Shown piece after piece: positions 495-26,539 of a stretch of DNA of 64,000 bases. Under the pieces are notes generated by a model, which saw nothing but the letters and a program-made list of their open reading frames with translations, searched no databases and had not been told where the DNA came from. Numbering within the stretch: position 1 is the first letter of the stretch; each line of letters begins with the position of its first letter. Position numbers and translations under genes: made by a program. Source of the stretch: an uncultured Spirochaetaceae bacterium (GTDB lineage Bacteria > Spirochaetota > Spirochaetia > DTKZ01); NCBI GenBank assembly GCA_964397655.1, contig CAYNKA010000014.1, positions 23,234-87,233 on the forward strand, written 5' to 3'.

Positions 495-1766
495 TCAGGG
501 AGTCGTCCTCTTCCGGTCCCGCGGAAAGAGCGAGGCTTCCTTCACGTTCTGGAGGCCGAGGATCTTCTGCGTGAGGCGCTCCAGTCCGATGGCGAAGCCT
601 CCGTGGGGAGGGCAACCGTACTTGAAGATGTCGACGTAGGCCCCGAGCCCCTCGGGGGTGAGGCCGAACTTCGGCAAGGCGTCCAGCAGCATGCCGTACT
701 CGTTGATCCTCCGGCCTCCGGTGGTGATTTCGAGGCCGCGGAACAGGAGATCGAAGCTCATGGTCTTGAGACCGTCGGGAAAGGCGTAGAAGGGCCGCTT
801 CTTCCTGGGGAAGGCGTTCACGAAGACGGCGTCGACGCCGTGCTTCTCCTTCGCCCAGTCGCAGACGATGCGCTCGCCTTCGGGATTGATGTCGAAGACC
901 CGCTTCCCGCCGCGCTCGGAGATGATGTCCTTGGCTTCGTCGTAACCGATGCGGGGAATCCTGTCCACCTCCTCCGGCTCCGGGACCGTCGAGCCGAAGG
1001 CCTCGAGGTCCGCCGCGTTCTCCGCCTTCACGCATGCGAAAACGTGCTTCAGGATGCCGCATTCGAGATCCATGAGGTCGTGTTCGGTATCGATGAAGGC
1101 CATCTCCACGTCGAGTGAAACGTATTCATTGAGGTGGCGCGGCGTGTCGTGCTTCTCCGCCCGGTAAGCCGCCCCAATCTCGAAGACCCGTTCCATACCG
1201 GAGGACACCATGGCCTGCTTGTAAAACTGGGGCGACTGGGCGAGGAAGACCTTGGTGTCGAAATACTCGACGGTGAAAAGCCCGGTTCCGCCCTCGGTTC
1301 CCGAGCCGATGAGCTTGCTCGTCTTGATTTCGGTGAAGCCCTGGCCGCGGAGGTGTTCGGCGAAGGCCTTCACGATCGTGGACTGCACGTTGAACACGCT
1401 CCGGAGCTTCGGGATGCGGAGCGAGATCATCCTGTTGTCGAGGACCGCGTCCAGGGAGATCTTGTCCGGATCCTGGTTGATGGGAAGGGGGAGGTCGGGA
1501 TGCGCGGTGGCGAGAACTTCCACGTTCGCGGCCCGGACCTCGACGCCGCCGGGAGCCTTCTCGTTCTTCCGGACGGGCCCCTTAACGGACAGGACCGATT
1601 CGTGGGAAAAATTCACCTTGCCCTCGAACACGAGCTGGACCATGCCGGTCCGGTCTCTGAGGAGCACGAACGAGATGGCGCCGAGTTCCCTGATTCGGTG
1701 AACCCAGCCCTTGAGCAGGATTTCCTCGTCGATGTGTTTCGCGACGTCCTTAGCAAGTACCCGCAC
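495..1766 (-). CDS. aspS: aspartate--tRNA ligase, archaeal-type class IIb (likely non-discriminating AspRS)
   Basis: 423 aa. The C-terminus GGFAIGLERLTQKILGLQNVKEASLFPRDRKRTTP matches archaeal-type AspRS (FPRD..R.TP). Class II motifs are present (FRAE, GxGxGxER). It lies directly downstream of gatCAB, consistent with a transamidation route for Asn-tRNA. Confidence 0.8.
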   Translation of the reverse strand: MRVLAKDVAKHIDEEILLKGWVHRIRELGAISFVLLRDRTGMVQLVFEGKVNFSHESVLSVKGPVRKNEKAPGGVEVRAANVEVLATAHPDLPLPINQDPDKISLDAVLDNRMISLRIPKLRSVFNVQSTIVKAFAEHLRGQGFTEIKTSKLIGSGTEGGTGLFTVEYFDTKVFLAQSPQFYKQAMVSSGMERVFEIGAAYRAEKHDTPRHLNEYVSLDVEMAFIDTEHDLMDLECGILKHVFACVKAENAADLEAFGSTVPEPEEVDRIPRIGYDEAKDIISERGGKRVFDINPEGERIVCDWAKEKHGVDAVFVNAFPRKKRPFYAFPDGLKTMSFDLLFRGLEITTGGRRINEYGMLLDALPKFGLTPEGLGAYVDIFKYGCPPHGGFAIGLERLTQKILGLQNVKEASLFPRDRKRTTP

Positions 1767-4155
1767 TTGGAGCCTCCATGAGCTTTATCAATTCATCGTC
1801 GGTTTCCGCGGCGAGTTGAGCCGCGACGAGTTTCGTGAAGGTCGACTCCGTAGTCAGATCCCCCATGGGGATCGCTCCCCCCTTCCAGAGTTCGTGGGCC
1901 GTCACGTATTCGGAAAAATCGACGACCCCTTCCTGCTGGGAGGTGCAGAAGAAGGTCACGCCGTTCTCCCTCCCGTGATCGAAGGCCTTCTTGAGGGAAA
2001 AGGGGCTCTCCCTGAGGTTCGCGGTCCCGGTGTCGAAAAGTTCGAGGATGAAGTACCTCACCCCCGCCTTCATGATCGCGATGAGCGTGTCCCCCTGCAT
2101 GCCGGGATAGACCTTGGCGACGAAAACGTTCGCTATCGCCTTTTCGAGCCTTTCCTTGAGCGTCTTGTCCTGGAATGACGTCCGGTCCTCGGCAAAGCAC
2201 AGGCCGGCCGCCGCGGCCTCGGAGCGGTTCCAGTTCGCGAATTCCACGGGATTGACCCGCTGGAACTTCAGATTGAGCGCCGCGTACTCCTTGCCGCCGA
2301 AGACGACGACGACTCCCGGCTTTCCGGAGGAGGCGCGCACGACCGCGGCCTTCAGGTTCTCGCCGGCGTCGCTCACCTCCCCGGGCGGAAGCGCCGCGGC
2401 GGTGAAGACGATGGGGATCTTCGCGCCGGAGAAGAGCCAGTGCACGAGGGACGCGGTATAGGAGAGCGTGTCCGTTCCGTGGGCGATGACGATACCCGAG
2501 GCGTTGCCTTCCTTGAGCGTCCGGTCGACGGCGGAGAGAAGCACGGCCCAGTCCTCGGGCGTGATCTCCTCGCTCAGGAATTTCCCGAGCTCGAGTTCTT
2601 CGAAGCGGATCTTCGCGGGAAGGTCCTTGCCGCCCGCGAGGAGGACCTTGATCGCCTCTTCGCCGCCGGGATTCACCACGCCGCGGTCGTCGCGCACTCC
2701 GGAGATCGCTCCGCCGAAGGAGAAGACCTGCACGTAGCTCACGGCGAACCTCTCCTTGAGCAGGGACTGGAGAAGCTGCGGTTCGGTCCGGCCCGAGGTC
2801 TCCTTCATGATCTGACCCACGAGGAAGCCCAGGGGCTTCGTATCCCCCGCCCGGATCGCCTTGACGACGTGGCCGTGGGAAGCGAGCACGCGGTCGATCA
2901 CCTTCCCGATTTCGACGGGGTCGGTGAGCTGCTCCCAGCCTTTTTCCTTGATGATCGCGGCCGGGTCCTTGTCTTCCTCGAACACCGTCTCGAGCACCTG
3001 CTTCGCGATCTTGCCGTGAATGCGGCCGCTCGAAAGCAGGCCGAGGAGCTCGGCGAGCCTCTTCTCGGTGAGCGGACTCTTCGCGAGTTCGAGGTTGGTC
3101 CGTTTCAGGATTTTCTGCACGTCCATGGCGAGCCAGTCCGCCGCGGTCACGGGAGGGGCGCCGAGGGCGACGGCCTTCTCGAAGAAGTCGGCAACGGCCT
3201 TCTCGCCGATGAGGAACTCCGCGCTCCCCTCGGAGAGACCGTAGTCCTTCAGGAACCGTTCGCGGCGGGCGTCGGGAAGTTCGACCAGGGCGGCCTCCAC
3301 GGCCGAGAGAAAGGCCTCGTCTGGCCTGAAGGGCGGGAGGTCGGGTTCGGGGAAGAAGCGGTAGTCGTGCGCGCTCTCCTTGGTCCGCATCGGCTCGGTT
3401 ACGTCGCGGTTCTCGTTCCAGAGACGGGTCTCTTGAACGACGGTGCCGCCGCGGGTGAGGATCTCCTCCTGGCGGCCGATCTCGTAGTTGAGCGCGAGCT
3501 TCACGAAGCGCGAGGAGTTGAGGTTCTTGATCTCGACCTTGCGGCCGAGACCCTGTCCCCGGAGGTTGATCGAGACGTTTGCGTCGCAGCGCATGGAGCC
3601 TTCCTCCATGTTGCCGTCGCAGACGCCGAGGTAGCGGATCATGCGCCGGAAGTTCTGGAGCAGGACCTCCGCCTCCTCGCCGATCTCGAGGTCCGGTTCG
3701 GTGACGCACTCGAGGAGGCTGGTGCCCGCTCGGTTGTAGTCGAGGAGGGACATGTCGCCGGCGTGGATCATCTTGCCGGCGTCCTCCTCGAGGTGGATCT
3801 CGTGGAAACGGATGCGCTTCTTCTTTTTCCGGAACTCGATGTCGATCCAGCCGTTCCTCCCGACGGGCTGGGCGTACTGCGAGATCTGGTAGTTCTTCGG
3901 CATGTCCGGGTAGAAGTAGTTCTTCCGCTCGAAGACGGCGGCGGGATTCAGCGTGCAGTTGAGGGCCCGGGCCACGACGTAGGCCATGCGGATCGCCTCG
4001 GAGTTGAGGGAGGGAAGCACGCCGGGATATCCCATGCACACGGGACAGACGTTCGTGTTCGGCTCGTCGCCGAAGTTCGCCTTGCAGCCGCAGAAGGCCT
4101 TCGTCTTCGTGAGGAGCTGGATATGAATTTCGAGACCGATGAATGACTGGTACAC
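1750..4155 (-). CDS. gatB: Asp/Glu-tRNA amidotransferase subunit B fused to a C-terminal asparaginase-like domain
   Basis: 801 aa continuous ORF. Residues 1 to about 480 are full-length GatB (MYQSFIGLEIHIQL..., the tail-domain GFLVGQIMKETSGRTEPQLLQSLLKERF). The C-terminal ~320 aa carry the asparaginase family motif IVIAHGTDTLSYTASL and the TPEDW segment typical of type I asparaginase/GatD. Confidence 0.8.
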   Translation of the reverse strand: MYQSFIGLEIHIQLLTKTKAFCGCKANFGDEPNTNVCPVCMGYPGVLPSLNSEAIRMAYVVARALNCTLNPAAVFERKNYFYPDMPKNYQISQYAQPVGRNGWIDIEFRKKKKRIRFHEIHLEEDAGKMIHAGDMSLLDYNRAGTSLLECVTEPDLEIGEEAEVLLQNFRRMIRYLGVCDGNMEEGSMRCDANVSINLRGQGLGRKVEIKNLNSSRFVKLALNYEIGRQEEILTRGGTVVQETRLWNENRDVTEPMRTKESAHDYRFFPEPDLPPFRPDEAFLSAVEAALVELPDARRERFLKDYGLSEGSAEFLIGEKAVADFFEKAVALGAPPVTAADWLAMDVQKILKRTNLELAKSPLTEKRLAELLGLLSSGRIHGKIAKQVLETVFEEDKDPAAIIKEKGWEQLTDPVEIGKVIDRVLASHGHVVKAIRAGDTKPLGFLVGQIMKETSGRTEPQLLQSLLKERFAVSYVQVFSFGGAISGVRDDRGVVNPGGEEAIKVLLAGGKDLPAKIRFEELELGKFLSEEITPEDWAVLLSAVDRTLKEGNASGIVIAHGTDTLSYTASLVHWLFSGAKIPIVFTAAALPPGEVSDAGENLKAAVVRASSGKPGVVVVFGGKEYAALNLKFQRVNPVEFANWNRSEAAAAGLCFAEDRTSFQDKTLKERLEKAIANVFVAKVYPGMQGDTLIAIMKAGVRYFILELFDTGTANLRESPFSLKKAFDHGRENGVTFFCTSQQEGVVDFSEYVTAHELWKGGAIPMGDLTTESTFTKLVAAQLAAETDDELIKLMEAPSAGTC

Positions 4156-4158
4156 TGC

Positions 4159-5553
4159 TCAACTCCATTCCGAGGAACTGCCCGGCGGGACGGGGCAGGG
4201 GAAGTCCGCCTCGTACAGCCTCGCAGCCTCGAAGAGCCTGGCCTCCTCGAAGGGCGGAGCCAGGAACTGCATTCCCACGGGAAGCCCGTCCTCGACCGCA
4301 ACGGGAAAGCTCAGGGCCGGAATGCCCGCCAGGTTCGCCGAGGTGGTGAAACGGTCCGCGAGCTTCTGCTGGAAGGCGTCGAGGCCCTCGGCGCCGCGTT
4401 TGAACGCCTGCGTCGGGAAGACCGGCATGAGGATGACGTCGACCGACTCGAAGGCCTTCGCGAAATCGTTCCTGATCGCGGTGCGGATCTTCTGCGCCCG
4501 CTGGTAGTACTGGTCCTGGAATCCCGACCTGAGCACGTAGGTGCCGAGGAGGACGCGGAGCTTCACCTCGTCGCCGAAGCCCTCGCTCCTCGCCTTGCGT
4601 ACGAGTTCCTCCGGATTCTCCGAGTACTCCGGCCTGAAGCCGTAGCGGATCCCCGTGAAGCGGGCGAGGTTGGCGCTCGCCTCGGCCGTCGCGATCGTAT
4701 AGTAGACCGGCACGTATTGCTCGGCCATGGAAAGCTCGATCTCGACGATCGAGAAGCCCTTCTTTCGGTAGGTCTCGACGGTCTTTCCGTAGGCCTTCTC
4801 CACCGCGGGATCGAGACCGAGATCCCCCTTGAGTACGCCGATCTTCCTGCCGAGCGGCCTGCCCGAGGGCGTGTGTTCCAGGGAGGATTGGTCCCGCTCG
4901 TCCTCGCCTCGGATGGCGTCGAAGACCTCCTCGGTCATCGCCACGGACCGAGCGCAGATCCCTACGACGTCCAGGGAGGACGCATAAGCCGTGAGCCCGT
5001 AGCGGGATACGACGCCGTAGGTCGGCTTCAGGCCGTAGACTCCGCAGAAGGCCGCGGGCTGCCGGACCGAGCCGCCCGTGTCGGAGCCGAGGGCGAAGGG
5101 AACCATGCCCGCCGCAACAGCCGCGGCGCTCCCGCCGGACGAGCCTCCGGCGACCCGGCTCGGATCCCAGGGGTTGTTGGTCTTCCCGAGCGCGGAATTG
5201 TCCGTGGACGAACCCATGCCGAACTCGTCCATGTTGGTCTTTCCCACCACGACGGCGCCCCGTTCGATGAGCTTCCCGACGGCCGTCGCGGTATAGGGCG
5301 CGACCAGGTTCTCGAGGATCTTCGAACCGCAGGTGAGCCGGAATCCCTTGACCGCGAGGATGTCCTTCACCGCGAAGGGAACGCCGGCGAGGTCGCCTTC
5401 GGGTCTGCCGAGCCGGAGACCCCGCTCGGGATCGAATTCGAGGAAGGCCCCGATCTTCTCATCCGCGGTACGGACGTATTCGCCGTATTTTTTTCGCCTT
5501 TCGGTGTCGGAAACCAAATTCCGCCACTTATCGAACGTTGAACTCATAGCCAC
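4159..5553 (-). CDS. gatA: Asp/Glu-tRNA amidotransferase subunit A (amidase family)
   Basis: 464 aa with the amidase signature GGSSGGSAAAVAAGM and a Ser-cisSer-Lys context. Located between gatC and gatB. Confidence 0.9.
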   Translation of the reverse strand: MAMSSTFDKWRNLVSDTERRKKYGEYVRTADEKIGAFLEFDPERGLRLGRPEGDLAGVPFAVKDILAVKGFRLTCGSKILENLVAPYTATAVGKLIERGAVVVGKTNMDEFGMGSSTDNSALGKTNNPWDPSRVAGGSSGGSAAAVAAGMVPFALGSDTGGSVRQPAAFCGVYGLKPTYGVVSRYGLTAYASSLDVVGICARSVAMTEEVFDAIRGEDERDQSSLEHTPSGRPLGRKIGVLKGDLGLDPAVEKAYGKTVETYRKKGFSIVEIELSMAEQYVPVYYTIATAEASANLARFTGIRYGFRPEYSENPEELVRKARSEGFGDEVKLRVLLGTYVLRSGFQDQYYQRAQKIRTAIRNDFAKAFESVDVILMPVFPTQAFKRGAEGLDAFQQKLADRFTTSANLAGIPALSFPVAVEDGLPVGMQFLAPPFEEARLFEAARLYEADFPCPVPPGSSSEWS

Positions 5554-5571: not shown

Positions 5572-5868
5572 TTACAGAACGTTGGGAATGACGATCAAGC
5601 GGTCCTCGAGCTCGGGCGCATTCTCGAGAAGCGCGTCGATATCCGGCTCGGGAGCCTCCGCGTCCAAGCGGACACGGTTTTTTTTCAGGAGGGCGTGCGT
5701 AGTGGGAGGAAGGTTCGAGACGTCGACTTCCGACATTTTGGAAAAATAGCGGAGCATCTGCTCCACGGCCTTTCCGAGAGATTCGATTTCTTCTTCCCGC
5801 AGATCGAGATACGCAAGCCCCGCGGTCACGTGCAACTCGGACTTTTCCATGTTATGGTACTTTTGCAT
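5572..5868 (-). CDS. gatC: Asp/Glu-tRNA amidotransferase subunit C
   Basis: 98 aa with a GatC-like sequence. It is the first gene of the gatCAB operon on the minus strand. Confidence 0.75.
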   Translation of the reverse strand: MQKYHNMEKSELHVTAGLAYLDLREEEIESLGKAVEQMLRYFSKMSEVDVSNLPPTTHALLKKNRVRLDAEAPEPDIDALLENAPELEDRLIVIPNVL

Positions 5869-6292
5869 ACACTCCGAGGCTTGGTCAATAGAGCGGCGAA
5901 AGGCCGTTTTCGCCTCGAATAAGAGGACGCTTCAAAGCTCGCCGTCTCGGGAAAGGCGGCGGGGGAAGGGATGCCTTGTTTCACGGATTCGCGAAGATGA
6001 AGGACGGGCAGGGAAAGAAGGCATGGGTTCCGCAAAGGACATCGGTCGAAAAAAAATATCACGTATATTCATATTGGAGAAACAAATATCCATTTGACTT
6101 TCCTCCAAAATCAATGTATTGTTAAATTCGCCTATTTTCATAAGTAGCGACCGAACATCTACCTTTATGCAACACTTGAATCCGAGGATGCAATCAGGGT
6201 ATAGGTACTGTTTGCATAATGGGTAGTGTATACTTTATACAGAGAGTCAACGCTCCGTTCTCGATACGGAACAGTCGATTGAGGTGACCTAG

Positions 6293-7714
6293 GTGACGAA
6301 GAAAGATTTTCCTTCCATTCATTTTTACGATCAGGATTTCGTCGATATTTACGATCAGACATGGGCCTGGATCCAGGATTATTGGCAGAAAGGAACGACC
6401 GAGAACAAATTCCAGAAACTGTATTTCAACTATCCCCACAACAAGACGATCAACCAGTTCGAATCCATCATGTCGACCTTCTTCATCGTCTATTCGAACC
6501 GCAACTTCCCGGTGACCCCCCAGCTCGACAATTTCTACGAGCGGCAGGAATCGGACGGGGCGATCCGCGGCGACTATCTCGTGGAGAACGGGAAGCCTTT
6601 TCACGTCAAGGAGAATCCGACCGGCGTCAACCCTCCGCTCTTCGCTTGGGCCGAATACAACATGTATCACAAGATCGGCAACAAGAAGCGGATCAAGGAA
6701 GTCATGCCTGTCCTCGAAAATTATTTCACCTGGTTGGAGAACACCTTCAAGCGGGACAACGGACTCTACGAGGTCCCCGTCGCGGCGACGAAGATGGACA
6801 ACAGCCCGAGAAAGGGAACCTGCTACCCCATCGACTTCAACACCCAGCAGGCGATCAACGCGCTCTACATGTCCGAGCTCGGTGACATCCTGAACGACAA
6901 GGAAATCAGCTTCAAGTACAAGCGGCAGTACTTCTCCCTCAAGACGCGCATCAACAACCTGATGTGGAACGAGGAGGACGGCATCTACTACGATCTCGAC
7001 AAGAACGAAAACCAGGTCAGGTCGAAGACCGTCGCCTCGTTCTGGCCGCTGCTAGCGGAGCTTCCGAACGAGGCGAAAACCGAAAAGATAATCGCCCACC
7101 TCAAAAACCCGGACACGTTCGGGACGGAGCATCCGTTCCCCACGCTGTCGGCGGACGAACCCGCGTTCGAAAAGACCGGGATGGGATTCCGAGGTTCGGT
7201 CTATCCCCCCTTCACCTTCATGGTGATCAAGGGATTGGAAAAATACGGAGCCTTCGACCTCGCCAGGGAGAGCGCGATACGCCACCTCTACTACATGCTG
7301 GACACTCTCCATCCCGAAGGCAAGGAAAAAGGCAACGTGTGGGAGGCATACGCCCCGAGGAACGAAGGACCGTCGAAGTGGCCGGGTAAGGAAGGCTTCC
7401 CCAGGCCGCAGTTCCTCACGTACACCGCCCTTTCCACCATAGCGCTCATGATCGAGAACGTGGTCGGTCTCTACATCAGCCTTCCGAGAAAGACCGTCGA
7501 CTGGATCATTCCGACCCTGGAAATCATGGGAATCGAGAACCTCTCCCTCAAGAGGAACCTCATCACGATCCTGAGCAGCAAGAGCGGACGGGGATGGGAA
7601 ATACGCCTCGAATCGGAGAAGCTCTACTACTTCACCATCGACATACTCGGAAAGAAAAAGAAGACGCTCCCGATCCCCTCGGGCAAATGCTCCATGCTCA
7701 TAGACAAGCTGTGA
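6293..7714 (+). CDS. (alpha/alpha)6-barrel glycoside hydrolase, GH63/GH37-like (mannosylglycerate/glucosylglycerate hydrolase or trehalase-like)
   Basis: 473 aa with a GTG start behind a GAGG RBS. Its composition and motifs (DGIYYDLD, WEAYAP) resemble six-hairpin glycosidases. GC looks lower than in neighbouring genes. Confidence 0.4.
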   Translation: MTKKDFPSIHFYDQDFVDIYDQTWAWIQDYWQKGTTENKFQKLYFNYPHNKTINQFESIMSTFFIVYSNRNFPVTPQLDNFYERQESDGAIRGDYLVENGKPFHVKENPTGVNPPLFAWAEYNMYHKIGNKKRIKEVMPVLENYFTWLENTFKRDNGLYEVPVAATKMDNSPRKGTCYPIDFNTQQAINALYMSELGDILNDKEISFKYKRQYFSLKTRINNLMWNEEDGIYYDLDKNENQVRSKTVASFWPLLAELPNEAKTEKIIAHLKNPDTFGTEHPFPTLSADEPAFEKTGMGFRGSVYPPFTFMVIKGLEKYGAFDLARESAIRHLYYMLDTLHPEGKEKGNVWEAYAPRNEGPSKWPGKEGFPRPQFLTYTALSTIALMIENVVGLYISLPRKTVDWIIPTLEIMGIENLSLKRNLITILSSKSGRGWEIRLESEKLYYFTIDILGKKKKTLPIPSGKCSMLIDKL

Positions 7715-7721: not shown

Positions 7722-8585
7722 GTGCGGCAGATGAAAGAACTCTTTCCCGGCGATTCCTACGCGACTCCCGAAGGGATGCGTTATTTTTCCGACAGGCTTC
7801 TGTTCTGGACCCGATGGAATCTCTATTTCAGGTTCTTCCGTATCGTCCTGAAATCGCGCTCGCTCGCGAAGAAGGGACTCTTCACCGACGAGGCTATGGC
7901 GAGCCTGAGCTTCGACATCATCCGCGACGTCGAGGGCTGCGGCGGCAGGATCACCATCAAGGGCCTGGACAACATCCGCAGGGTCGAAGGCCCCGTGGTT
8001 TTCGTCTGCAATCACATGAGCACGCTCGAGGCGGTGGTCCTGCCCGCCATCGTAACTTCAATCAAGCCGGTCGCCTTCGTCATAAAGGAACGCCTTAAAA
8101 AGGGGCCCTTCTTCGGTCCCATCATGGCGGCGCGCGACTTCATCACCGTGACGCGTAAGGATCCGCGCAAGGACCTCACCGACGTGCTCACCCAGGGTCT
8201 GGAGAAGCTGAAGGCGGGGCGGTCGATCTTCCTCTTCCCCCAGAGCACGGAACACGCGCGCTCCGTCGTCTTCGACCCCGCAAAATTCAACTCGCTCGGA
8301 ATCAAGCTCGCGTCCCGCGCCGGGGTTCCTGTCATTCCCGCTGCGGTGAAGACCGACTTCTGGGGCGACGGGAAATTCATCCGCGGCTTCGGCAGGGTCG
8401 AGCGGAACGAACCCATTCATTTCGAGTTCGGGGAACCCATAACGGTATCCGGGAGGGGAAAGCTAGAACACGAACGCGCGCTCGGCTTCATCCTCGGCCG
8501 ACTCGGGGAATGGAAGGTCCCCATCGCCGAACCCTCCGCCCTCGCCGGTCCGTCTAGCGTCCCGACTTCCCCCGAAGAACCATGA
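7722..8585 (+). CDS. lysophospholipid (1-acyl-sn-glycerol-3-phosphate) acyltransferase family protein
   Basis: 287 aa. CNHMSTLE resembles the HX4D/E acyltransferase motif and FLFPQSTEH a PlsC-type second motif. Confidence 0.5.
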   Translation: MRQMKELFPGDSYATPEGMRYFSDRLLFWTRWNLYFRFFRIVLKSRSLAKKGLFTDEAMASLSFDIIRDVEGCGGRITIKGLDNIRRVEGPVVFVCNHMSTLEAVVLPAIVTSIKPVAFVIKERLKKGPFFGPIMAARDFITVTRKDPRKDLTDVLTQGLEKLKAGRSIFLFPQSTEHARSVVFDPAKFNSLGIKLASRAGVPVIPAAVKTDFWGDGKFIRGFGRVERNEPIHFEFGEPITVSGRGKLEHERALGFILGRLGEWKVPIAEPSALAGPSSVPTSPEEP

Positions 8586-9207
8586 TGAGCCTGGCGGGGG
8601 CGACCCCGGTCGGGCAGACGACGGAGCAGAGCGTATGCCTCTCGCAGGCAGAGGCGCCGTCGGGTTTCCCCGTCCGTTGAAGAATTTCCCGCGACCGCTC
8701 AGGCCGTTTGGCGAGTTCCCTCGCCCAGGCAGCGAGCGCCGCGGGCCCCAGGAAGGGTTTCCGCACCGGGCAAGCCGAAAGACAGCTCCCGCATTCGATG
8801 CAATCTTCAAAACGAACCTTCGTCCCTTCCCCGCCCGTGCCGGTGCCGGTCGGCTCGAGGTACGAGGCGTCCTCGGGCAGTGACTCGAAGAGCCGATCCG
8901 GGAACACCGCGAGGTCCTTGAGCAACTTCGCGTTCCTGAGCGGTTCGATCGTCACGACCGGGGCGTCGAGCTCCGCGAGCCTCGTCGTGCAGGCGAGCTT
9001 CTCCACGCCGTTCACCCTGCAGGCGCAGGTCCCGCAGGAACCGTGGTGACAGGAATGCCGGTAGAGGAGGTCGGGAGCCTCCCGGGTCCGGATTTCCTCC
9101 AGGGCGTCGAGCAGGGTCGTCGTCTCCGAAACGTCCACCCGATAGTCCGTCCAGTCCGCCGTCCCGTCTCCGGTCCTCGGAATCCGCAGTTCGATCTCAC
9201 GCTTCAC
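8554..9207 (-). CDS. iron-sulfur subunit, SdhB/FrdB-like (2Fe-2S plus 4Fe-4S)
   Basis: This is the C-terminal 218 aa of the 542 aa track ORF. It has the plant-type ferredoxin cysteines CHHGSCGTCACRVNG and the motifs CIECGSCLSACP...CPTG. A GTG start at 9207 overlaps the TGA stop of the upstream gene (GTGA). The N-terminal part of the track ORF is an alternative-frame artefact. Confidence 0.6.
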   Translation of the reverse strand: MKREIELRIPRTGDGTADWTDYRVDVSETTTLLDALEEIRTREAPDLLYRHSCHHGSCGTCACRVNGVEKLACTTRLAELDAPVVTIEPLRNAKLLKDLAVFPDRLFESLPEDASYLEPTGTGTGGEGTKVRFEDCIECGSCLSACPVRKPFLGPAALAAWARELAKRPERSREILQRTGKPDGASACERHTLCSVVCPTGVAPARLIMVLRGKSGR

Positions 9208-10382
9208 CGAGTCCCCCCTCGATAATAGGCACGCCACGAAGGCAGGACGGCCTCGGCGGTCCTGCACGGCGCGTCTACGGAAAAATACCTGCACACCGCG
9301 TCCGCCGCCTTTTCGGCCATGGCCCGGAGCACCGTCGCCTTTCCGCCCAGGACGCTGAAGAATCCAGCGGCGCCTTCTCCGTCGTGATGAACGCAGGCGA
9401 AGTCCCGCGAAAGCTCTCTTCCGGACGCCGCGTCCGGCCGGCCGAAGAGAGGCCTGGGAGCGGCCCAAGCCGCGTGGAATTTCGCCGTTGAAAAGGCCGG
9501 GACGAGCTCGGCCGCCCTGCGGACGAGGAAGGAAAGATCCTCCTCCCGAAATCGGGAATCTTCGAGGTCCTCGGTCGTCCACTGGGTGGTGCCGATGATC
9601 GAAAGCCTCCTCTGGGGCACGAGGATGTCGCCGTCGCCGGGCGGCGCGAGTCGGCTCACGACGAGGTCGACGAGCCTTCCCTTGACCGCGAGAAGGGTAC
9701 CGGGGCTCGGCGTGACCGGGAGGTTCACTCCGGCGAGCGCGGCGATTCTCCCCGCCCATGCGCCGCCCGAGTTCACGACCGCGTCCGCCTTCTCGAACCG
9801 GTCCCGGCCGGTCACGAGGTCCCTTACCCGTACGCCTCGGACGCGGCCTTTTGTCACGTCGATGCCCGTTACGAGGTGATAGGGCCGAATGCCGGCGCCG
9901 AGGGACTTCGCCCCCGCGAAGAAGGAGAGGGCGAGCCTGAAGGCGTCGATCGAGCCGTCCGGTACCAGGACCGCCGCCCTGTGGTCGGGATTGACGCCCG
10001 GCTCTCTGCGCAGTGCTTCCGCCGGATCGAGTCGTTCCGCCGGAATGCCGGCCTCGGCGCAACCCTCGAGAAAAGGCCCGAGGTATTCGATCCCCTCGTC
10101 GTCCATCGCGAGGAAGAGGCCGCCGTTGAACTCGACGGCCTCGGGAGCGATGCGCCGGAGAATTTCCGATTCCTTCATGCACTCCCGGCCGATGTTCCGG
10201 TCCCGGACCGCGTAACGGGCGCCGCAGTGGAGCTGACCGTGATGCCTGCCCGTGGTGCCGGAGGTGAGTTCGCCCCGCTCGAAGAGCGCGACCTCGAAAC
10301 CCCGCCGGGCGAGATCGTAGGCCAGGGCCCCTCCGGTTCCGCCGCCTCCGATCACGACGACCTTGGCTTTTTCTTTCGGCAT
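9204..10382 (-). CDS. FAD-dependent oxidoreductase (anaerobic glycerol-3-phosphate dehydrogenase GlpA-like / DAO family)
   Basis: 392 aa. The N-terminal dinucleotide-binding fold is VVVIGGGGTGGALAYDLARRG. It overlaps the downstream Fe-S gene by GTGA, suggesting translational coupling. Confidence 0.6.
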   Translation of the reverse strand: MPKEKAKVVVIGGGGTGGALAYDLARRGFEVALFERGELTSGTTGRHHGQLHCGARYAVRDRNIGRECMKESEILRRIAPEAVEFNGGLFLAMDDEGIEYLGPFLEGCAEAGIPAERLDPAEALRREPGVNPDHRAAVLVPDGSIDAFRLALSFFAGAKSLGAGIRPYHLVTGIDVTKGRVRGVRVRDLVTGRDRFEKADAVVNSGGAWAGRIAALAGVNLPVTPSPGTLLAVKGRLVDLVVSRLAPPGDGDILVPQRRLSIIGTTQWTTEDLEDSRFREEDLSFLVRRAAELVPAFSTAKFHAAWAAPRPLFGRPDAASGRELSRDFACVHHDGEGAAGFFSVLGGKATVLRAMAEKAADAVCRYFSVDAPCRTAEAVLPSWRAYYRGGTR

Positions 10383-10385
10383 CGG

Positions 10386-11084
10386 CTACGCGAGCTCCAG
10401 GGCGAGCTTTACCATGTCGTCGAACGAGGACTGCCTGTCCTCCGCGGACAACGCGGTGCCGAGCGGGATGTTGTCGCTCACCGTGAGGATCGAAAGCGCC
10501 TTCACCTTGAACTTCGCGGCGAGCGTGTAGAGGATCGAGGTCTCCATCTCGATCGCGAGGACCCCGTATTCGGCCCAGAGCCTCCAGGCGTCCGGCTCGT
10601 CGTCGTAGAAGGTGTCGCTCGAGAGGATGTTCCCGGACCTGATCGGCAGCCCCATCCGCTCGGCCGCCTCGTGGGCCTTGAGGAGCAGCTCGAAATCCGC
10701 GGCCGGAGCGTAGTCCATGCCCTTGAACCTGAGCCTGTTCATGCTCGAATTGGTGGAGGCCGTCATCGCGAGGAGGACGTCGCGGAGATGGATCGTTTCC
10801 TGGACCGCTCCGCAGCTTCCGATCCGGACGAGACGGCCGGCTCCGTAGAAGTTGATGAGCTCGTGCACGTAGATTCCGTGGGAAGGCATCCCCATCCCGG
10901 TTCCCTGGACCGAAACACGCTTGCCTCGGTAGGTCCCCGTATATCCCAGCATGCCCCGCACCTGGTTGTAACAGAAGGGATTCTCGAGGAATTTTTCCGC
11001 CACGAATTTTGCCCGCAGAGGATCTCCCGGGAGAAGGACGATGTCGGCGATGTCGCCCTTTTTGGCTCCGATGTGGACGCTCAT
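10386..11084 (-). CDS. deoD: purine nucleoside phosphorylase, DeoD-type
   Basis: 232 aa with family-1 PNP features ([13 protein letters not shown]). Its stop overlaps the start of the upstream gene. Confidence 0.85.
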
Positions 11085-11340
11085 GCTCCGCTCCTTGTTT
11101 CGATTTCGCCTCTCAGTATAAGCCCGTCGGTCGGCTTATCTCAATGGCGAAAACGCGCCTTCGTCGCGGCCTGCCCTTGACTCGGCCTCGATTTCGGCGA
11201 TATAGAATTTCCGAATAAGGCGAAGATAAAAACACGATCCGGTCGGTAGTCCGGATGTACGGCGCCGCGATGCCGCACCAGTAACCTTCCCCCAAGGGAT
11301 GTCCGTTCTTCGCGTCGTGTCCGACAATCGGGGGATTCTC

Positions 11341-11754
11341 ATGAAAACAGTCTTTTCGATCTACTTCGAAGAGCCGTTCTGGGTAGGCGTGTTCGAGACA
11401 CGAGCCGACGGCGAACTGACGGTCGGACGGGTAGTCTTCGGGGGCGAGCCATCCGACGCGGAGGTCCGTGATCTCCTCCTCTACCGATATGCTACGATAC
11501 CGTTCAGCACGGTGAGCCTTCCGGAGGGCGAAACGCCGCATCCGGTCCACGTCAATCCGAAGAGGAGACAACGTCAGGCAGTCAAGGATCAGCGGTACGC
11601 CTCGTCGACGAAGGCTCAGGAGGCCCTGAAGGCTGCCTACGAGGCTTCGAAGGCCGACCGCCGGGACGAAGCGCGGCGCAGGACGGAGGATGACGAGTTG
11701 AGGAAATTCCTTCTCAGGCAGGAAAAGAAAAAAAGGAAAAGGCGTGGGCATTGA
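11341..11754 (+). CDS. DUF2992-like hypothetical protein with a basic C-terminal tail
   Basis: The N-terminus MKTVFSIYFEEPFWVGVFE and the Lys/Arg-rich tail recall the DUF2992 family. The start is taken at an internal ATG of the track ORF 11299-11754. Confidence 0.4.
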   Translation: MKTVFSIYFEEPFWVGVFETRADGELTVGRVVFGGEPSDAEVRDLLLYRYATIPFSTVSLPEGETPHPVHVNPKRRQRQAVKDQRYASSTKAQEALKAAYEASKADRRDEARRRTEDDELRKFLLRQEKKKRKRRGH

Positions 11755-11825
11755 ACCGGACCGATTGTCAAGGCTAGCACGCCGTTCTATCATTCCATGA
11801 TCGAACAAGGACAAGGAGAAATTCG

Positions 11826-12569
11826 ATGGAATTGAAAGACAAAGTCGCGCTCATAACCGGGGGAGGCACGGGCCTCGGACGGGCCGTCGCCCTGAAGCTC
11901 GCGAGGGAAGGGATGAACGTCGCGGTCAACTATTCCAAGTCGAAGGCCGAGGCCGATGAAACCGTCGAGGAGGCGAAAGCCCTCGGAGTGAAAGCCATGG
12001 CCTTCAAGGCGGACGTTTCCTCGACGCGGGAGGCGGAAGACCTGGTCGAGGAAACCGCGAAAGCCTTCGGAAGGCTCGACCTTCTCGTCAACAACGCGGG
12101 AACCACCAAATTCGTCCCCTTCAAGGACCTCGACGGCCTTTCCGAGGACGATTGGCTCCGGCTTTTCAGAATCAATACGATGCCCTCCTTTTTCACCACC
12201 CGGGCTGCGGCGAAGATCATGAGGAGGTTCGGGGGCGGCCACATCATCAACACCGTGTCCATCGCCGGGCTCAGGCCTTCGGGCAGCAGCATCGCCTACG
12301 CGGTTTCCAAGGCGGCGCTCATCCACGCGACGAAATGCCTGGCCGTAGCCCTGGCCCCGGACATCAAGGTGAACGGCGTGGCGCCCGGCGTACTGCTCAC
12401 CCGATGGGCCGACGGATTCTCCGGCGAGCAGATCGAAACCATGAAGAACAACGCCCTTCTCAAGAAGACCGTGGACGTGGAGGAGTGCGCCTCGATGTAC
12501 GTCGCCCTCGCGAAGAACGACAGCATGACCGGGCAGATCATCGTCGTGGACGCGGGCCAAGTCGTCTGA
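11826..12569 (+). CDS. SDR family oxidoreductase (FabG-like)
   Basis: 247 aa with TGGGTGLGRA, NNAG and the catalytic pair YxxxK (YAVSKAA). Confidence 0.85.
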   Translation: MELKDKVALITGGGTGLGRAVALKLAREGMNVAVNYSKSKAEADETVEEAKALGVKAMAFKADVSSTREAEDLVEETAKAFGRLDLLVNNAGTTKFVPFKDLDGLSEDDWLRLFRINTMPSFFTTRAAAKIMRRFGGGHIINTVSIAGLRPSGSSIAYAVSKAALIHATKCLAVALAPDIKVNGVAPGVLLTRWADGFSGEQIETMKNNALLKKTVDVEECASMYVALAKNDSMTGQIIVVDAGQVV

Positions 12570-12627
12570 TCCATCGAAAACGCAGGGATCCCCTTCTCGG
12601 CGCCTTTTCCGGAAAATCGAATCCGGC

Positions 12628-13263
12628 CTAGAACTTGAAATTCACGCCCACGCAGGCGGCCACGAGGTTGAAATCCTTCTCGTCGAAGGTCACGTCGCCG
12701 CCCCAGCCCCCGGAACGCGTTTTCCGGAAACCGTTGTACGGAATCGTATAGTCGAGTTCCATCTGGAGCGACAGCCTTTTCGAAAAGTACAGCTCGATGC
12801 CGCCGATGACGTCGCCCATCCGGAGCCCGGCGAGGAGGACATGGTGACGGTAGCCGGCGTACGGCTCCAGATGATTCCCGAACCGGTAACCGGCGATCAG
12901 CCCCGCATTGACGTCCAGAAAAGACCAGTAGTAAAAACCGACTCCGGTCACGAACGAAAGTTGAAAAGGATTCGAGGGACCGGTCAACCCGTATTTCAAG
13001 GCGGCATCCGCTCCGAGCATTCCCGCGTTGACGCCGACCTCGAAGCCGGACGGCAGCCCGAGACGGAACGTGCCGGTCACGACGCCGGGAGGATTCTCGA
13101 CGTCGGATTCCGTCCCGCCGGAGTTCGCGTAATAGAGTCCTCCTCCGTATATGCCGACGGACATCTTCCCCGGTTCGAGCGGCCTCGGGGAATGCAGGCT
13201 CATGGTGGCGCAGGAGAGAAAAAGGGGAAACACGGCGAGCGCGAGCACGACGATCTTCTTCAT
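12628..13263 (-). CDS. lipoprotein, small outer-membrane beta-barrel-like
   Basis: The signal peptide ends in a lipobox (LFLSC). The protein is rich in Gly/Tyr and ends in an aromatic residue (F). Confidence 0.45.
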   Translation of the reverse strand: MKKIVVLALAVFPLFLSCATMSLHSPRPLEPGKMSVGIYGGGLYYANSGGTESDVENPPGVVTGTFRLGLPSGFEVGVNAGMLGADAALKYGLTGPSNPFQLSFVTGVGFYYWSFLDVNAGLIAGYRFGNHLEPYAGYRHHVLLAGLRMGDVIGGIELYFSKRLSLQMELDYTIPYNGFRKTRSGGWGGDVTFDEKDFNLVAACVGVNFKF

Positions 13264-13374
13264 GGTCGACAGTCCGGGTCCATCATACCATGAAACACCG
13301 ATACAGGCTCGGACTTTCGAAAAAAAAACGCCCGGGAGCTTACCCCCGAGCGCCTTTCGTATCGTGGATCGCGT

Positions 13375-13806
13375 TCAACGAATCATCCTGCTGCTCACGA
13401 AGGTCGTGCCATCAATCTGGAGGCTCTGGATCATGTAGTCGCCGTCATCCTCGGCCATGGTGAAGACGACGTTGGCGCCGCTCGGGTAACTGATAGCGCT
13501 GGTCACCTTCGTCGTAGCCTGGTTCCCTACCACGGTCAGAGCCCCGAACGTATAGATCTCGCCCGCGGGAAACGCCCCGCCGGGAGCGCTCCAAAAGGTC
13601 GCAGGTTTTATGGAGTTGTACATGTTCGTCAGGCTCGGGTGGAAGTGCGTGTAGAGATTCGCGTAGTTACCCGCCTTCACGTCGGCGGTGAAGCCGTTGA
13701 CCTGGTCCTCGATGGACGTGCCCTGGTTCAGGTTACAGGTAAAGAAGGCCGAGGCGACGAGAGCCGCGGCAGCGGCGAAAACGATTATCTTCAGGATTCG
13801 TTTCAT
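13375..13806 (-). CDS. lipoprotein, hypothetical
   Basis: Internal start MKRILKIIVFAAAAALVASAFFTC with a lipobox, preceded by a GGAGGA RBS. Confidence 0.45.
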   Translation of the reverse strand: MKRILKIIVFAAAAALVASAFFTCNLNQGTSIEDQVNGFTADVKAGNYANLYTHFHPSLTNMYNSIKPATFWSAPGGAFPAGEIYTFGALTVVGNQATTKVTSAISYPSGANVVFTMAEDDGDYMIQSLQIDGTTFVSSRMIR

Positions 13807-13822
13807 GTTTTCCTCCGATGGT

Positions 13823-14842
13823 TCATATGTCCGCCTCCACGAGATGCGGAACGACGGCATCCTCGTAATTCTTCCTCACGGAATGGTAGAGGCTCATGAA
13901 CTCCCGATACTCGGGAGCGTCCTGCTTCAGAATATACCGGCTTTTCATCTGGACGTACATGCCGCCGAGCACGTACCTGCGCATGGAGAGATAGGAGAGC
14001 GCGTAGTGCCTCATGTTGAGGAAGAGCGTCCGCCGCTTCTCCCCGATTCCCGTGAGGAGCTCGGACCGGAGTCCGGCGGCCTTCGCGTCGTCCTTCGCCT
14101 CCACCGCCTTCTTGAGTTCCTCGTACACACGCGCACTCTCTTTGTCCGCCTCGGCGAGGGGCTTCAGTACGGCGCGGAGGTCTTCGCGGAAACGGGCGAG
14201 CTGCGTCTCGACGTCCTTCAGCCTCCCTACGGGATCGGCGAGGAAGGCTTCCTCCCTGCCCTTGTTCCAGGCGCTGAAATCCTGGTGCCTGCCGAGCCAG
14301 GTGAACTTCTCTCCGGGCGTCCGCCCCGGCTTCACCTCCACGGCCTCGTTCACGCCGAGTTCGACCGCCTTGCCTTGGGAGGAAACCTCGACAGCGCCCT
14401 TTTCCACCACGAGGAGGGCCGAGCCGTCCATGCCCGCGTACACGGTGAGCTCGGTCCCGCGCACGCCGGCCACGTAGCTGTTGGTCCTGATCGAAGGACC
14501 CCTGCCCGAGAACTTGTTGAGCCGGTAGGACACCGCCCCCACCGCGGTGGACAGCACGGTCTGCTTCTCGCCCTCGACCTCCACCTCGCCGATGGTGAAC
14601 ACCGTGTTCGGCTTCACCGAGATCGTACTCTTGTTCGAGAGCTCGAGGTCGGCCCTGCCGTCTTCCTTCGTGATGACCGACTCCCCGACCTTGAGGTCGG
14701 TGCCGATGTCGAGTTCGACGATGCCTCCCGAGAGTTTCCTCGTCGACGCGTCCCCTTCCACGTACACGGTCGTCGCGTTCTGTGCCGCGGCGGCCGCCGA
14801 GATCGCCGCCGCCGCGACGACGACGAAAAACGCCTTTTTCAT
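13823..14842 (-). CDS. secreted FecR-domain protein
   Basis: Signal peptide MKKAFFVVVAAAAISAAAAAQ, a FecR-like beta region and a coiled/helical C-terminus. Confidence 0.5.
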   Translation of the reverse strand: MKKAFFVVVAAAAISAAAAAQNATTVYVEGDASTRKLSGGIVELDIGTDLKVGESVITKEDGRADLELSNKSTISVKPNTVFTIGEVEVEGEKQTVLSTAVGAVSYRLNKFSGRGPSIRTNSYVAGVRGTELTVYAGMDGSALLVVEKGAVEVSSQGKAVELGVNEAVEVKPGRTPGEKFTWLGRHQDFSAWNKGREEAFLADPVGRLKDVETQLARFREDLRAVLKPLAEADKESARVYEELKKAVEAKDDAKAAGLRSELLTGIGEKRRTLFLNMRHYALSYLSMRRYVLGGMYVQMKSRYILKQDAPEYREFMSLYHSVRKNYEDAVVPHLVEADI

Positions 14843-15297
14843 TTCACCGGCCCCCTCAAGCCCCTGATTTTAGGATAGCCGCCGACCTCCTTGCCGAGCA
14901 GGAGGTAAAAGACTCCTCCGTCAGCGGCGAGCTTCACCATCGACGTGTCCCTGTCGAGGTATTTGGCGAAAAAGGTCTTGACGTCCATGGAATCATCGAA
15001 GATCTTGTACGAGTCCGCGGCGGGCCTGACGATCTCGAGGACCTTCGCATTCTTCATGACGAATCCGGCGGCCTTGAAGTTGTCCCAGAGCGAGTTCAGG
15101 TCTTTCTGCAACAGCACGATCTCGCCGTCGAACAGAAAGGGGGTCTCGGCGAGGCCCTTCACCTCGTTCACGCCGCCCTTGTTGATGAGATCCACGAGCC
15201 TCTGGATCCTGTCCTCCCGCTGAACGTAGGGCCCCGTGGCGCAGGACAGAACGAGCAGCACCAAAGCCGCGGCGGCTCCCGGTTTCATGATTTTCAA
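14839..15297 (-). CDS. lipoprotein, hypothetical
   Basis: Signal peptide with the lipobox LVLSCA. Confidence 0.45.
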   Translation of the reverse strand: MKIMKPGAAAALVLLVLSCATGPYVQREDRIQRLVDLINKGGVNEVKGLAETPFLFDGEIVLLQKDLNSLWDNFKAAGFVMKNAKVLEIVRPAADSYKIFDDSMDVKTFFAKYLDRDTSMVKLAADGGVFYLLLGKEVGGYPKIRGLRGPVK

Positions 15298-15311
15298 GGT
15301 TCTCTCCTTCG

Positions 15312-15827
15312 CTATTGTTCGACGATTCCCCGGATGATGTCGTCGATGTCGTCCTGTTCTATGTCGAATTTCCTCTCGTAAGCGAGTTCCTGATTCGCGG
15401 TCCTGAGCTTCTTGAGCAGGCTGTAGATCACGATCATGAGGAACTTGATGCCCGCGCTCGGATTCTTCTTGATGAAGCCGAGAAAGGTGTCCCGGTGCAC
15501 TTTCACGACCGACGTATTTTCGGCGGCTTCCACGTTCGCCGTCCGTTTCACCTTGGCGAATATACCCGCTTCGCCGAAGAATTCCCCCTCGCCGATCGTG
15601 CAGATGTAGACGTCCTTGTCTTCCTTGACCGACACGTTGACGCTTCCCGAAACGACGATGAAGAAATCCGGACTGTATTCCCCCTCCTGTATGACGGTCG
15701 TCGGAGCGGCGTAAACCTGGTACGAGCTTTCCTTGATCAGGCCGAGGAGGTCCGCCGGGAGAAAATATCGAAAAAGCGGCGTCGCGTGAAGCTTAGTATA
15801 GACTTCTTGTGCTTGTTCGTCTTTCAT
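15312..15827 (-). CDS. cyclic nucleotide-binding domain protein
   Basis: 171 aa with the cNMP-binding signature GEGEFFGEAGIF...RTANVEA. Confidence 0.7.
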   Translation of the reverse strand: MKDEQAQEVYTKLHATPLFRYFLPADLLGLIKESSYQVYAAPTTVIQEGEYSPDFFIVVSGSVNVSVKEDKDVYICTIGEGEFFGEAGIFAKVKRTANVEAAENTSVVKVHRDTFLGFIKKNPSAGIKFLMIVIYSLLKKLRTANQELAYERKFDIEQDDIDDIIRGIVEQ

Positions 15828-16038
15828 GTTCGCTCCTTCAACATAAGTTTAACTTCTTTTCGTGAGATTTCAAATGCCAGAGGGAATCTTTCCGCCTCTC
15901 TTTCCGGAAGAGATTCGCTTCCTTGAAAATCATCGTAAAAGTGATACACTTTTTACCAATAGTAATTTAAAAACGCCTATATCTTACATCGTGCTTCTAC
16001 ATCGCGGGCAAAAATTACCTCATAGGGAGGCAACGTCC

Positions 16039-17727: not shown

Positions 17728-17829
17728 AGGGTAAGGGGAATCTTCGCGCCGGGGCATTTCCTTCCCCTGCCTCGCTTCCCCAGGGCGTGGGGTTCGTGCT
17801 ATCCTCACGCTCACAACGCGAGGATAACA

Positions 17830-18729
17830 ATGTCGTCAACCCACATCGGAGAACTCGTCGCCCTGGCAACGGCCTTCTGCTGGACCGCGACGGCCTTCTT
17901 TTTCGAATACGGGGTCAAGCGGATCGGGACCCTTTCCCTCAACCTCATCAGGCTCTCCATGGCCTTCGTCTTTTTGTGCCTCTACTCCCTCGCCTTCAGG
18001 GGGATGCTTCTTCCCTTCGATGCGACTCCCGAGACCTGGTTCTGGCTGATCCTCTCGGGACTCGTCGGCTTCGTCTTGGGAGACATCTTCCTGTTCAGGT
18101 CCTACATCGACATCGGAGCGAGGATCGCGAACACGATCTACGCCTCCGTCCCTCCCATGACGGCCCTGGTCGGGTTTTTCCTCCTCGGCGAGACGCTGGG
18201 CGTTCAGGAAATGGCAGGCATGGCCATTACGCTCGGCGGCCTGGCCTTGGTGTTGACGAAGAAGGGCGAAAAATCCGGCACCCTGCAGTTCTCGCACCCG
18301 GTGAGGGGTGTCCTCTACGCCTTCCTCGGAGCGGTCGGGCAGGCCGGCGGCCTCGTCCTGAGCAAGTACGGGGCCCCGTCCTACAACGCCTTTTCCGCAA
18401 CGCAGATCCGCTGCATCGCAGGCCTCGTCGGATTCGCGGCGATCAACCTCGCCATGAGGAGGGCCGGCAAAGTCGCTTCGGCGTTCAGGGAACGCAAGGC
18501 GATCGGCATGATCTTCCTGGGAGCGTTCTTCGGCCCCTTTCTCGGCGTATCCTTCGGTCTCTACGCGATCCAGCACACGGCCACGGGCATAGCTTCGACC
18601 ATCATGGCCCTCGTGCCGGTGATCATCATCGCGCCCTCGTACTTCATCTTCCGGGAAAAGGTCACTCTGCGGGAAATCATCGGCGCCGTGGTCGCGGTCG
18701 CGGGTACCGTCGTGCTCTTCCTGCGGTAG
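17830..18729 (+). CDS. EamA/DMT family transporter
   Basis: 299 aa with ten predicted TM helices and a duplicated EamA architecture. Confidence 0.8.
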   Translation: MSSTHIGELVALATAFCWTATAFFFEYGVKRIGTLSLNLIRLSMAFVFLCLYSLAFRGMLLPFDATPETWFWLILSGLVGFVLGDIFLFRSYIDIGARIANTIYASVPPMTALVGFFLLGETLGVQEMAGMAITLGGLALVLTKKGEKSGTLQFSHPVRGVLYAFLGAVGQAGGLVLSKYGAPSYNAFSATQIRCIAGLVGFAAINLAMRRAGKVASAFRERKAIGMIFLGAFFGPFLGVSFGLYAIQHTATGIASTIMALVPVIIIAPSYFIFREKVTLREIIGAVVAVAGTVVLFLR

Positions 18730-18740
18730 GCTCCGGAGCC

Positions 18741-26169: not shown

Positions 26170-26294
26170 CCCCTTTAGCTCCGGCCAAGCCGGCCATGTC
26201 ACATCGGCCAATCACTTACCGCTGCTCCCTTCCGGGCCTGACGGGGTTGGGTGCTGGCTGATTGCACGGAGCCTGACCATCAACGCTAAAGGGG
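26170..26294 (-). ncRNA. ffs: signal recognition particle RNA (small bacterial 4.5S type)
   Basis: The reverse complement contains the domain IV consensus GUCAGGCCCGGAAGGGAGCAGC. It is closed by the terminal helix CCCCUUUAGC/GCUAAAGGGG. It sits immediately upstream of dnaX on the same strand, a common ffs position. Confidence 0.7.
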
Positions 26295-26299
26295 AAATA

Positions 26300-26525: not shown

Positions 26526-26539
26526 ATAAAAAACAAAGC

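Follow-up and report, generated by a model that had tools for sequence, protein, structure and literature searches.

The DNA analyzed here is a stretch of 64,000 nucleotides (the window) from contig CAYNKA010000014.1 of an uncultured Spirochaetaceae bacterium (assembly GCA_964397655.1, positions 23,234 to 87,233 of the forward strand). Near its start the minus strand carries four tightly packed genes in the order gatC-gatA-gatB'-aspS, the third of which encodes a fusion of GatB with an asparaginase-like domain that, although its nucleophile has gone, is strongly conserved. The operon opens with gatC (5572..5868; Pfam GatC, 3.8e-15), followed by gatA (4159..5553; Pfam Amidase, 5e-133), which encodes the amidase-type glutaminase subunit. 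The fusion gene gatB' (1750..4155) is a single open reading frame (ORF) of 801 amino acids (aa) with zero internal stops, and aspS (495..1766) encodes an archaeal-type non-discriminating aspartyl-tRNA synthetase (AspRS) of 423 aa, which scores 515.9 bits against the NCBIfam equivalog for aspartate--tRNA(Asn) ligase (cut-off 353). The aspS gene starts with GTG, has GGAGG 7 nt upstream, and shares its first 17 nt with the end of gatB'. GC content at third codon positions (GC3) is 0.90 in the GatB part of the fusion gene and 0.85 in the asparaginase part. A recent foreign insertion was considered and rejected, as GC and GC3 are in line with those of the other operon genes. No second gatB, aspS or asnS-like gene was found in the window.

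The GatB part of the fusion protein is canonical. Pfam GatB_N covers residues 5-282 (3310..4143; 7e-111), the catalytic cradle, and GatB_Yqey covers residues 323-469 (2749..3189; 3.4e-41, full profile), the YqeY-type tail that constitutes the tRNA D-loop-binding domain. Over residues 2-470 the protein exceeds the cut-offs of three NCBIfam GatB equivalogs, NF004012 (604.9 bits, cut-off 338), NF004014 (582.8 bits, cut-off 414) and TIGR00133 (533.5 bits, cut-off 314.8); the GatE models give only 151 and 115 bits (cut-offs 456 and 320). The same part aligns end to end with Aquifex aeolicus GatB (3h0l_B, 1e-146), to residue 473/478, and His11, Glu123 and Glu149, in the motifs GLEIH, HLEED and LLECV, are aligned to the Aquifex protein. 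We take these three residues to be Mg ligands by equating them with His12, Glu124 and Glu150 of S. aureus GatB. Their equivalents in GatE are His15, Glu157 and Glu184 (PMC2330236). Profiles and alignments together identify the N-terminal 470 residues as a member of bacterial GatB. In common with the bacterial GatB structures (Aquifex aeolicus 3H0L, S. aureus 2F2A and 3IP4) they contain the cradle, helical and YqeY tail domains within residues 1-470, and they likewise share an operon with gatC and gatA, scores above the equivalog cut-offs and the putative Mg-ligand His/Glu/Glu. The difference lies in 331 extra C-terminal residues with an asparaginase fold, present in no solved and, as far as we found, no published GatB. 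The neighboring GatA retains its Lys63/Ser138/Ser162 triad, and its best match in the PDB is Aquifex GatA (3h0l_A, 6e-121), with the motifs aligned. Because GatA keeps this Lys-Ser-Ser triad, the supply of ammonia is already covered. These assignments establish that the window carries the predicted genes of a bona fide GatCAB and non-discriminating AspRS system.

The C-terminal residues match Pfam Asparaginase at 475-629 (1.4e-28) and Asparaginase_C at 676-789 (9.6e-11), and comprise an N-subdomain (residues 474-660; 2176..2736) and a C-subdomain (residues 676-789; 1789..2130). A preliminary description of this DNA, made from the letters without database searches, had proposed a complete bacterial GatB with its YqeY tail running without a stop into an asparaginase-like region in one 801-aa ORF, with gatA and gatC still encoded; the ORF check, the Pfam and NCBIfam matches and the position of gatA and gatC directly upstream bear this out. 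The two-subdomain fold of type I L-asparaginase is present, and the AlphaFold2 model of the isolated domain has a predicted local distance difference test score (pLDDT) of 90.2 and a predicted template modeling score (pTM) of 0.92. In the full-length model a helix (459-470) and a strand (474-479) flank the junction A-V-S (residues 471-473; 2737..2745), with a pLDDT of ∼80 across it, such that the last YqeY helix and the first asparaginase strand are only ∼3 residues apart and the fusion is essentially linker-free. The GatB-type tail is a portable module in tRNA-aminoacylation gene fusions, as in Deinococcus GlnRS-YqeY (cited in PMC2330236; NCBIfam NF011291 is hit). In Deinococcus, however, YqeY is joined to a synthetase, whereas here a foreign fold is joined to YqeY.

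Alignments by phmmer to 4q0m, 1wls and 5ot0, together with family alignments, place the TGGTIA motif of asparaginases on FSFGGAISG (residues 478-486; 2698..2724). The position of the nucleophilic Thr is occupied by Ala483 (codon 2707..2709), and that of the catalytic Tyr in the hairpin loop (P. furiosus Tyr21, E. coli AnsB Tyr25) by Val493 (2677..2679); this loop position is hydrophobic throughout the family. Retained are the substrate-binding Ser528 in LSEEITPEDW, Thr561 and Asp562 in HGTDT (residues 559-563; 2467..2481), and Lys630 in LNLKF (2266..2268), the Lys of the Thr-Asp-Lys triad. Translated into the numbering of E. coli asparaginase, the domain is without the acylating pair Thr12-Tyr25 and still has the triad Thr89-Asp90-Lys162. 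The acylating triad of that enzyme is Thr12-Tyr25-Glu283, with residue roles as assigned in PMC8948990; the C-subdomain gave no phmmer alignment to type II enzymes and hence no mapping of Glu283. The preliminary description was right that the nucleophilic Thr is absent, and reached this conclusion from a misplaced motif, LLAGGKDLP (residues 505-513), which lies in a variable loop or helix. The shortened N-terminal subdomain that it reported is not found, the domain having 331 aa vs 326-328 aa in archaeal-type enzymes, and the alignment that it suggested for scoring the Thr-Tyr-Thr-Asp-Lys residues gives the last three as kept and the first two as lost. A replacement nucleophile inside the motif was considered and rejected, since Ser and Thr residues flanking Ala483 are unconserved across the class I fusions described below.

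Comparison with known families places the domain in the fold and outside the enzymes. It scores 110 bits against TIGR00519, the type I asparaginase model (cut-off 260.5), and 109.3 and 107.6 bits against the GatD equivalogs NF003217 (cut-off 310) and TIGR02153 (cut-off 324); no Pfam match to PF18195, the GatD-specific N-terminal domain, was found in the fusion protein. The domain is thus, as judged from its sequence, an asparaginase fold that lacks catalytic features, and falls below the cut-offs, of type I asparaginase and GatD, and it is almost certainly not an asparaginase. Its identity to the asparaginases of P. furiosus (4Q0M), P. horikoshii (1WLS) and T. kodakarensis (5OT0) is only ∼27%, and these are free-standing proteins with Thr and Tyr, whereas the present domain is fused and has Ala and Val. 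GatD (1ZQ1, 2D6F) forms a polypeptide apart from its archaeal partner GatE, on whose cradle it docks, has PF18195 as its N-terminal domain, and depends on a Thr nucleophile; the present domain is fused behind the tail of a bacterial GatB in Spirochaetota, lacks both the Thr and the N-terminal domain, and coexists with GatA. An analogy to GatD drawn in the preliminary description therefore holds for the fold and possibly for the architecture, and fails for ammonia supply and for family membership (PF18195 being absent and the score a third of the cut-off). Among the top structural matches of the domain are the engineered mutants T13A of B. licheniformis asparaginase (7C8Q and 7C8X) and T19A of the guinea-pig enzyme (5DNC), in which asparagine is bound according to the PDB entry titles and which carry the same Thr to Ala change at the same position. 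These are laboratory point mutants of active enzymes, whereas the present change is natural and fixed in a lineage, in which the Tyr has been lost as well. We presume that these mutants are inactive. For the human T19A enzyme only a loss of cytotoxic activity is reported (PMC8948990). The domain is acidic, with an isoelectric point of ∼5 and a net charge of about -11 in both class I and class II. An RNA-binding extension of the tail was also considered, and is unlikely because of this acidity.

A protein search with the full 801-aa query found an identical sequence (P0078) in the public protein collection and, among the 120 matches listed, so that these counts are lower bounds, more than 110 clusters with lengths of 790-840 aa and identities of 61-67%. 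GatB_N, GatB_Yqey and Asparaginase are present in every cluster listed, and Asparaginase_C in all but two; the clusters derive from NCBI, JGI, ENA and Logan, and the names given by NCBI and JGI are 'GatB' only. A genome scan with one genome per species yielded 80 loci of ∼17 kb each, nearly all from Spirochaetota (e.g., Treponema primitia, Gracilinema caldarium and Alkalispirochaeta), and the survey for the same fusion in related genomes that had been suggested thus found it at full length in ∼72 of the 80, including the complete chromosomes CP070696 and OZ271836. Full-text literature searches returned no description of a GatB-asparaginase fusion. The preliminary description had called the arrangement undescribed, which holds for the literature searched; in sequence databases the fusion is common, as plain GatB. 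Within a single phylum the fusion occurs widely, and databases contain it under a GatB annotation that gives no sign of the second part.

With only the domain as query, an exhaustive HMMER search gave 35 representatives at E ≤ 1e-30, almost all of them ∼800-aa fusions or fragments thereof, below which free-standing asparaginases (320-390 aa) follow at ∼115 bits. Among the ∼95 aligned standalone relatives that include the motif region, TGGT is present in all but two, one with Ala and one with Pro. In a neighbor-joining tree without bootstrap the fused domains form one clade, apart from the standalone enzymes and GatD, which we read as showing a single origin of the fusion. Two free-standing archaeal proteins of ∼340 aa, P0060 and P0063 (Candidatus Diapherotrites per NCBI), have the sequence GGAIS, in which Ala stands in for the nucleophile; the fold therefore has members without a nucleophile outside GatB fusions as well. 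In the tree these two group with the standalone enzymes and GatD, away from the fusions.

The fusions are of three kinds. Class I (25 genomes and the window) has the gatC-gatA-gatB'-aspS operon and the motif GLEIHxQL, with a GatB core 59-75% identical to that of the window. In 25/25 class I genome loci as well as in the window the nucleophile position is Ala and the loop Tyr is missing; a class I-like fragment (P0012), as the exception, reads GGT. Wherever a class I locus extends beyond the fusion, aspS lies 3' of it, as it also does in Wallbacteria-type loci. The latter constitute group III (Candidatus Wallbacteria and metagenomic relatives), in which GatB is canonical and aspS follows downstream, and in which the second Thr of the asparaginase-like domain is missing too (HGLDT), as is usually the Lys. 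One group III operon (L083, identical in L084) has a 655-aa asparaginase-family gene (L083:2276-4243) directly before gatC-gatA-gatB'-aspS. The motifs in its product are permuted, an HGTDT segment at about residues 177-281 preceding ATGGTIDS...DSSNM at about residues 300-360, and the Thr nucleophile is present; the protein could be active and serve as a partner of the degenerate domain in the fusion. The window and the spirochaete loci have no homologue of this gene.

Class II (46 genomes of Treponema, T. primitia and Gracilinema; loci L011, L021-L022, L024, L026-L033, L035-L036, L039-L076 and L078) includes the fusions of Treponema primitia (L078 6414-9038) and Gracilinema caldarium (L030 6519-9014). 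Its GatB core is only 30-44% identical to that of the window, and of the 120 positions that are conserved between class I, Aquifex and Thermotoga, only 44 are intact and 76 are changed. His11, His121 and Glu149 are replaced by Arg in 46/46, and Asp191 by Asn, Asn193 by Tyr, Glu208 by Lys and Lys210 by Arg in most or all of the 46. A class II representative scores below every NCBIfam GatB cut-off (309.5 bits vs 338). A minority has Thr or Ser at the nucleophile position, and those with Thr likewise lack the loop Tyr (sequence of L050). A highly conserved gene for an MGH1-like or GH63-like glycoside hydrolase, a synteny marker by which class I and class II occupy the same locus (in the window 6293..7714 (+), divergent from gatC; Pfam MGH1-like_GH, 1.7e-33) is found divergent upstream of gatC in class I and directly upstream of the fusion gene in class II; it adjoins the operon or the fusion in 66 loci, at 57-83% identity and always divergent. 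The simplest reading is that the ancestor of class II was a class I-type operon from which gatC, gatA and aspS disappeared or moved elsewhere. The class II proteins look like orphan double pseudoenzymes, and a look-up of their database names gave none.

Selection on the domain was assessed by the share of positions at least 90% conserved in class I that are still kept in class II. This retention is 28% for the GatB cradle, 56% for the helical domain and 53% for the YqeY tail, and 93% and 62% for the N- and C-subdomains of the asparaginase-like part. Across both classes 59 positions of the domain are at least 90% conserved, including GG, SEE, P..DW, HGTDTL.YTA, NL.F, F..WN, PG, LEL, GT, CTSQQ, Y and W; Thr561 and Asp562 are invariant and Ser528 and Lys630 near-invariant. 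Pairwise ratios of nonsynonymous to synonymous substitution rates (dN/dS) for the domain are 0.06-0.13 in class I, apart from a saturated pair (window and L001) at 0.21, and 0.02-0.06 in class II, where in most pairs the domain has the lowest value of the three protein regions; dS is saturated in several pairs, and the pairs at dS <1 agree. Because of the low dN/dS and the 93% retention of the N-subdomain in class II, the domain is evidently functional and not decaying.

What the domain does can be approached from these data only in part. We tentatively propose, at a little under an even chance, that it is a GatD-like dimerizing or assembly module, possibly with a bound ligand. In this proposal a working GatB would have its YqeY tail joined nearly without linker to a complete asparaginase fold that would hydrolyze no amide, with ammonia still coming from GatA. 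The additional domain would be a non-enzymatic module that pairs with a second copy of itself and so ties two GatCAB trimers into a dimer. Such a dimer would probably stabilize an Asn transamidosome with the dimeric archaeal-type AspRS encoded by the overlapping next gene, and the retained half-pocket (Ser528, Thr561, Asp562 and Lys630) may bind an amino-acid ligand. An intimate homodimer is, to our knowledge, a universal property of the asparaginase fold, and the proposal is favored because of this property and because the GatD dimer organizes two kinase subunits. The GatD homodimer holds two GatE subunits (alpha2-beta2), with an N-terminal appendage on the same fold (PMC2330236), and the Asn-transamidosome of T. 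thermophilus, with the same AspRS type, is stable but reliant on extra scaffold tRNAs (PMC3367201). Group III has lost the pocket and yet keeps both the domain and aspS, and therefore a role common to all fusions cannot need the pocket; class II has lost GatB catalysis, and therefore the common role cannot depend on that either. Of the three options offered in the preliminary description (altered catalysis, a structural or docking module, or a different mechanism of ammonia release), the structural or docking module fits best, because the Thr and Tyr are gone, GatA is intact, group III has lost the pocket and the domain is under purifying selection, and alternative ammonia release is unlikely.

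Several observations weigh against a purely dimerizing role. In class II no part of the protein is more constrained than the asparaginase-like domain, yet the GatB cradle is dead, and no gatA, gatC or aspS was found within 8 kb of the fusion; the conserved role therefore cannot be transamidosome assembly only. Class II is the main unexplained point for this proposal. The invariant Ser/Thr-Asp/Lys pocket in classes I and II points to ligand binding rather than plain scaffolding. In addition, GatCAB crystals have a mobile YqeY tail, with no more than ∼400-410 ordered residues of GatB (target lengths), and a tail-to-tail dimer would therefore be loose; in the full-length AlphaFold2 model the pTM is only 0.58 and the mutual placement of the domains is not fixed.

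The conserved pocket also fits a different role, in which the domain would be an amino-acid sensor. A nucleophile-less pocket that traps Asn (or Asp, Gln or Glu) would allosterically tune GatB or its tRNA-binding tail and so couple amino-acid status to tRNA-dependent Asn synthesis, which is compatible with dimerization. Of the residues discussed above only the acylating Thr and Tyr are gone, and engineered Thr to Ala mutants are found as Asn-bound forms in the PDB. The 3-residue junction would, in the model, set the active-site hairpin next to the YqeY tail, and tRNA binding is thought to reposition the same hairpin in GatD (PMC2330236). Nevertheless, group III fusions lose Thr561 and Lys630 and still keep the domain, and class II would be sensing on behalf of a dead enzyme. 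Sensing is rather unlikely. A combination of pairing and binding is about as doubtful: the fused domain may be a natural substrate trap that binds an amide or acidic amino acid and dimerizes, giving a GatDE-like two-fold GatCAB with regulation. The domain would then be the functional core of the fusion, and class II, in which the tail together with the domain is under the tightest constraint, would consist of fused pseudoenzymes with a new, possibly tRNA-linked function.

It is improbable that the domain is an active second ammonia donor, hydrolyzing Asn or Gln by an altered mechanism (e.g., with Thr561 as nucleophile) and feeding GatB alongside or instead of GatA. The retained Thr-Asp-Lys triad and substrate-binding Ser, the Thr or Ser at the nucleophile position in a minority of class II, and a fold closest to active archaeal-type asparaginases would fit such a donor. 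Class I, however, has Ala and no loop Tyr throughout (but for the GGT fragment), class II proteins with Thr also lack the Tyr, and both Thr residues are missing from group III. Upstream in the same operon lies the gene for an intact GatA, and the domain sits on a mobile tail far from the cradle where GatA or GatD docks. Still less probable, and made very unlikely by the selection data, is an evolutionary relic, an ancestral active GatB-asparaginase superseded by GatA whose domain is decaying baggage: catalytic residues are indeed progressively lost across the groups, but dN/dS is 0.02-0.13 outside the one saturated pair, the 59 positions are shared by both classes, and more than 70 species have the domain untruncated, with class II proteins conserving it better than their other parts. 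An assembly or sequencing artefact hiding a stop or frameshift between two genes, which the preliminary description had named as a possible refutation, can be dismissed, since nothing was found in its favor (such errors look like the frameshift-broken metagenome-assembled loci L062 and L077), codon bias is uniform across the junction, and the same uninterrupted ORF occurs in at least 120 protein clusters and in the genomes of ∼70 species, complete chromosomes among them.

GatCAB in bacteria, with an amidase, and GatDE in archaea, with an asparaginase, are two independent couplings of ammonia to a tRNA-dependent kinase. Here a bacterial GatB has acquired the archaeal-type partner fold while keeping the bacterial partner. 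The fusions offer a natural system for non-hydrolytic roles of the asparaginase fold, for how transamidosomes hold together, and for the passage of an essential translation enzyme to a pseudoenzyme, since neither activity appears to remain in the Treponema-type proteins; this class II offshoot deserves its own study. Hundreds of these proteins are labeled plain GatB or 'asparaginase domain-containing protein', with the other half unmentioned.

Other features of the window were recorded. The 424-bp spacer between gatC and the MGH1-like gene (5869..6292) has a GC content of ∼0.42-0.47, much below its surroundings. At 35277..43852, the minus-strand genes gyrA and gyrB face the plus-strand genes dnaA (40086..41465), dnaN and recF, an order that we take to be the arrangement at spirochaete replication origins; the 382-bp gap at 39704..40085 therefore probably contains oriC. 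The gatCAB'-aspS operon lies ∼35 kb from this putative oriC. The longest ORFs at 8554..19553 and elsewhere have a GC3 of 0.52-0.69 vs 0.8-0.9 in confirmed genes, and many such low-GC3 ORFs are probably wrong-frame shadows, typical of a genome of 62% GC. An azaaromatic (yjdF) riboswitch aptamer is present at 11216..11322 (+) (Rfam RF01764, 82.7 bits, gathering score 45). A small signal recognition particle RNA (26180..26278) opens a stretch of RNA genes on the minus strand (26180..26805), in which it is followed by five clustered tRNA genes, Ser-GGA, Ser-CGA, Arg-GCG, Ser-GCT and Ser-TGA, four of them with serine anticodons.

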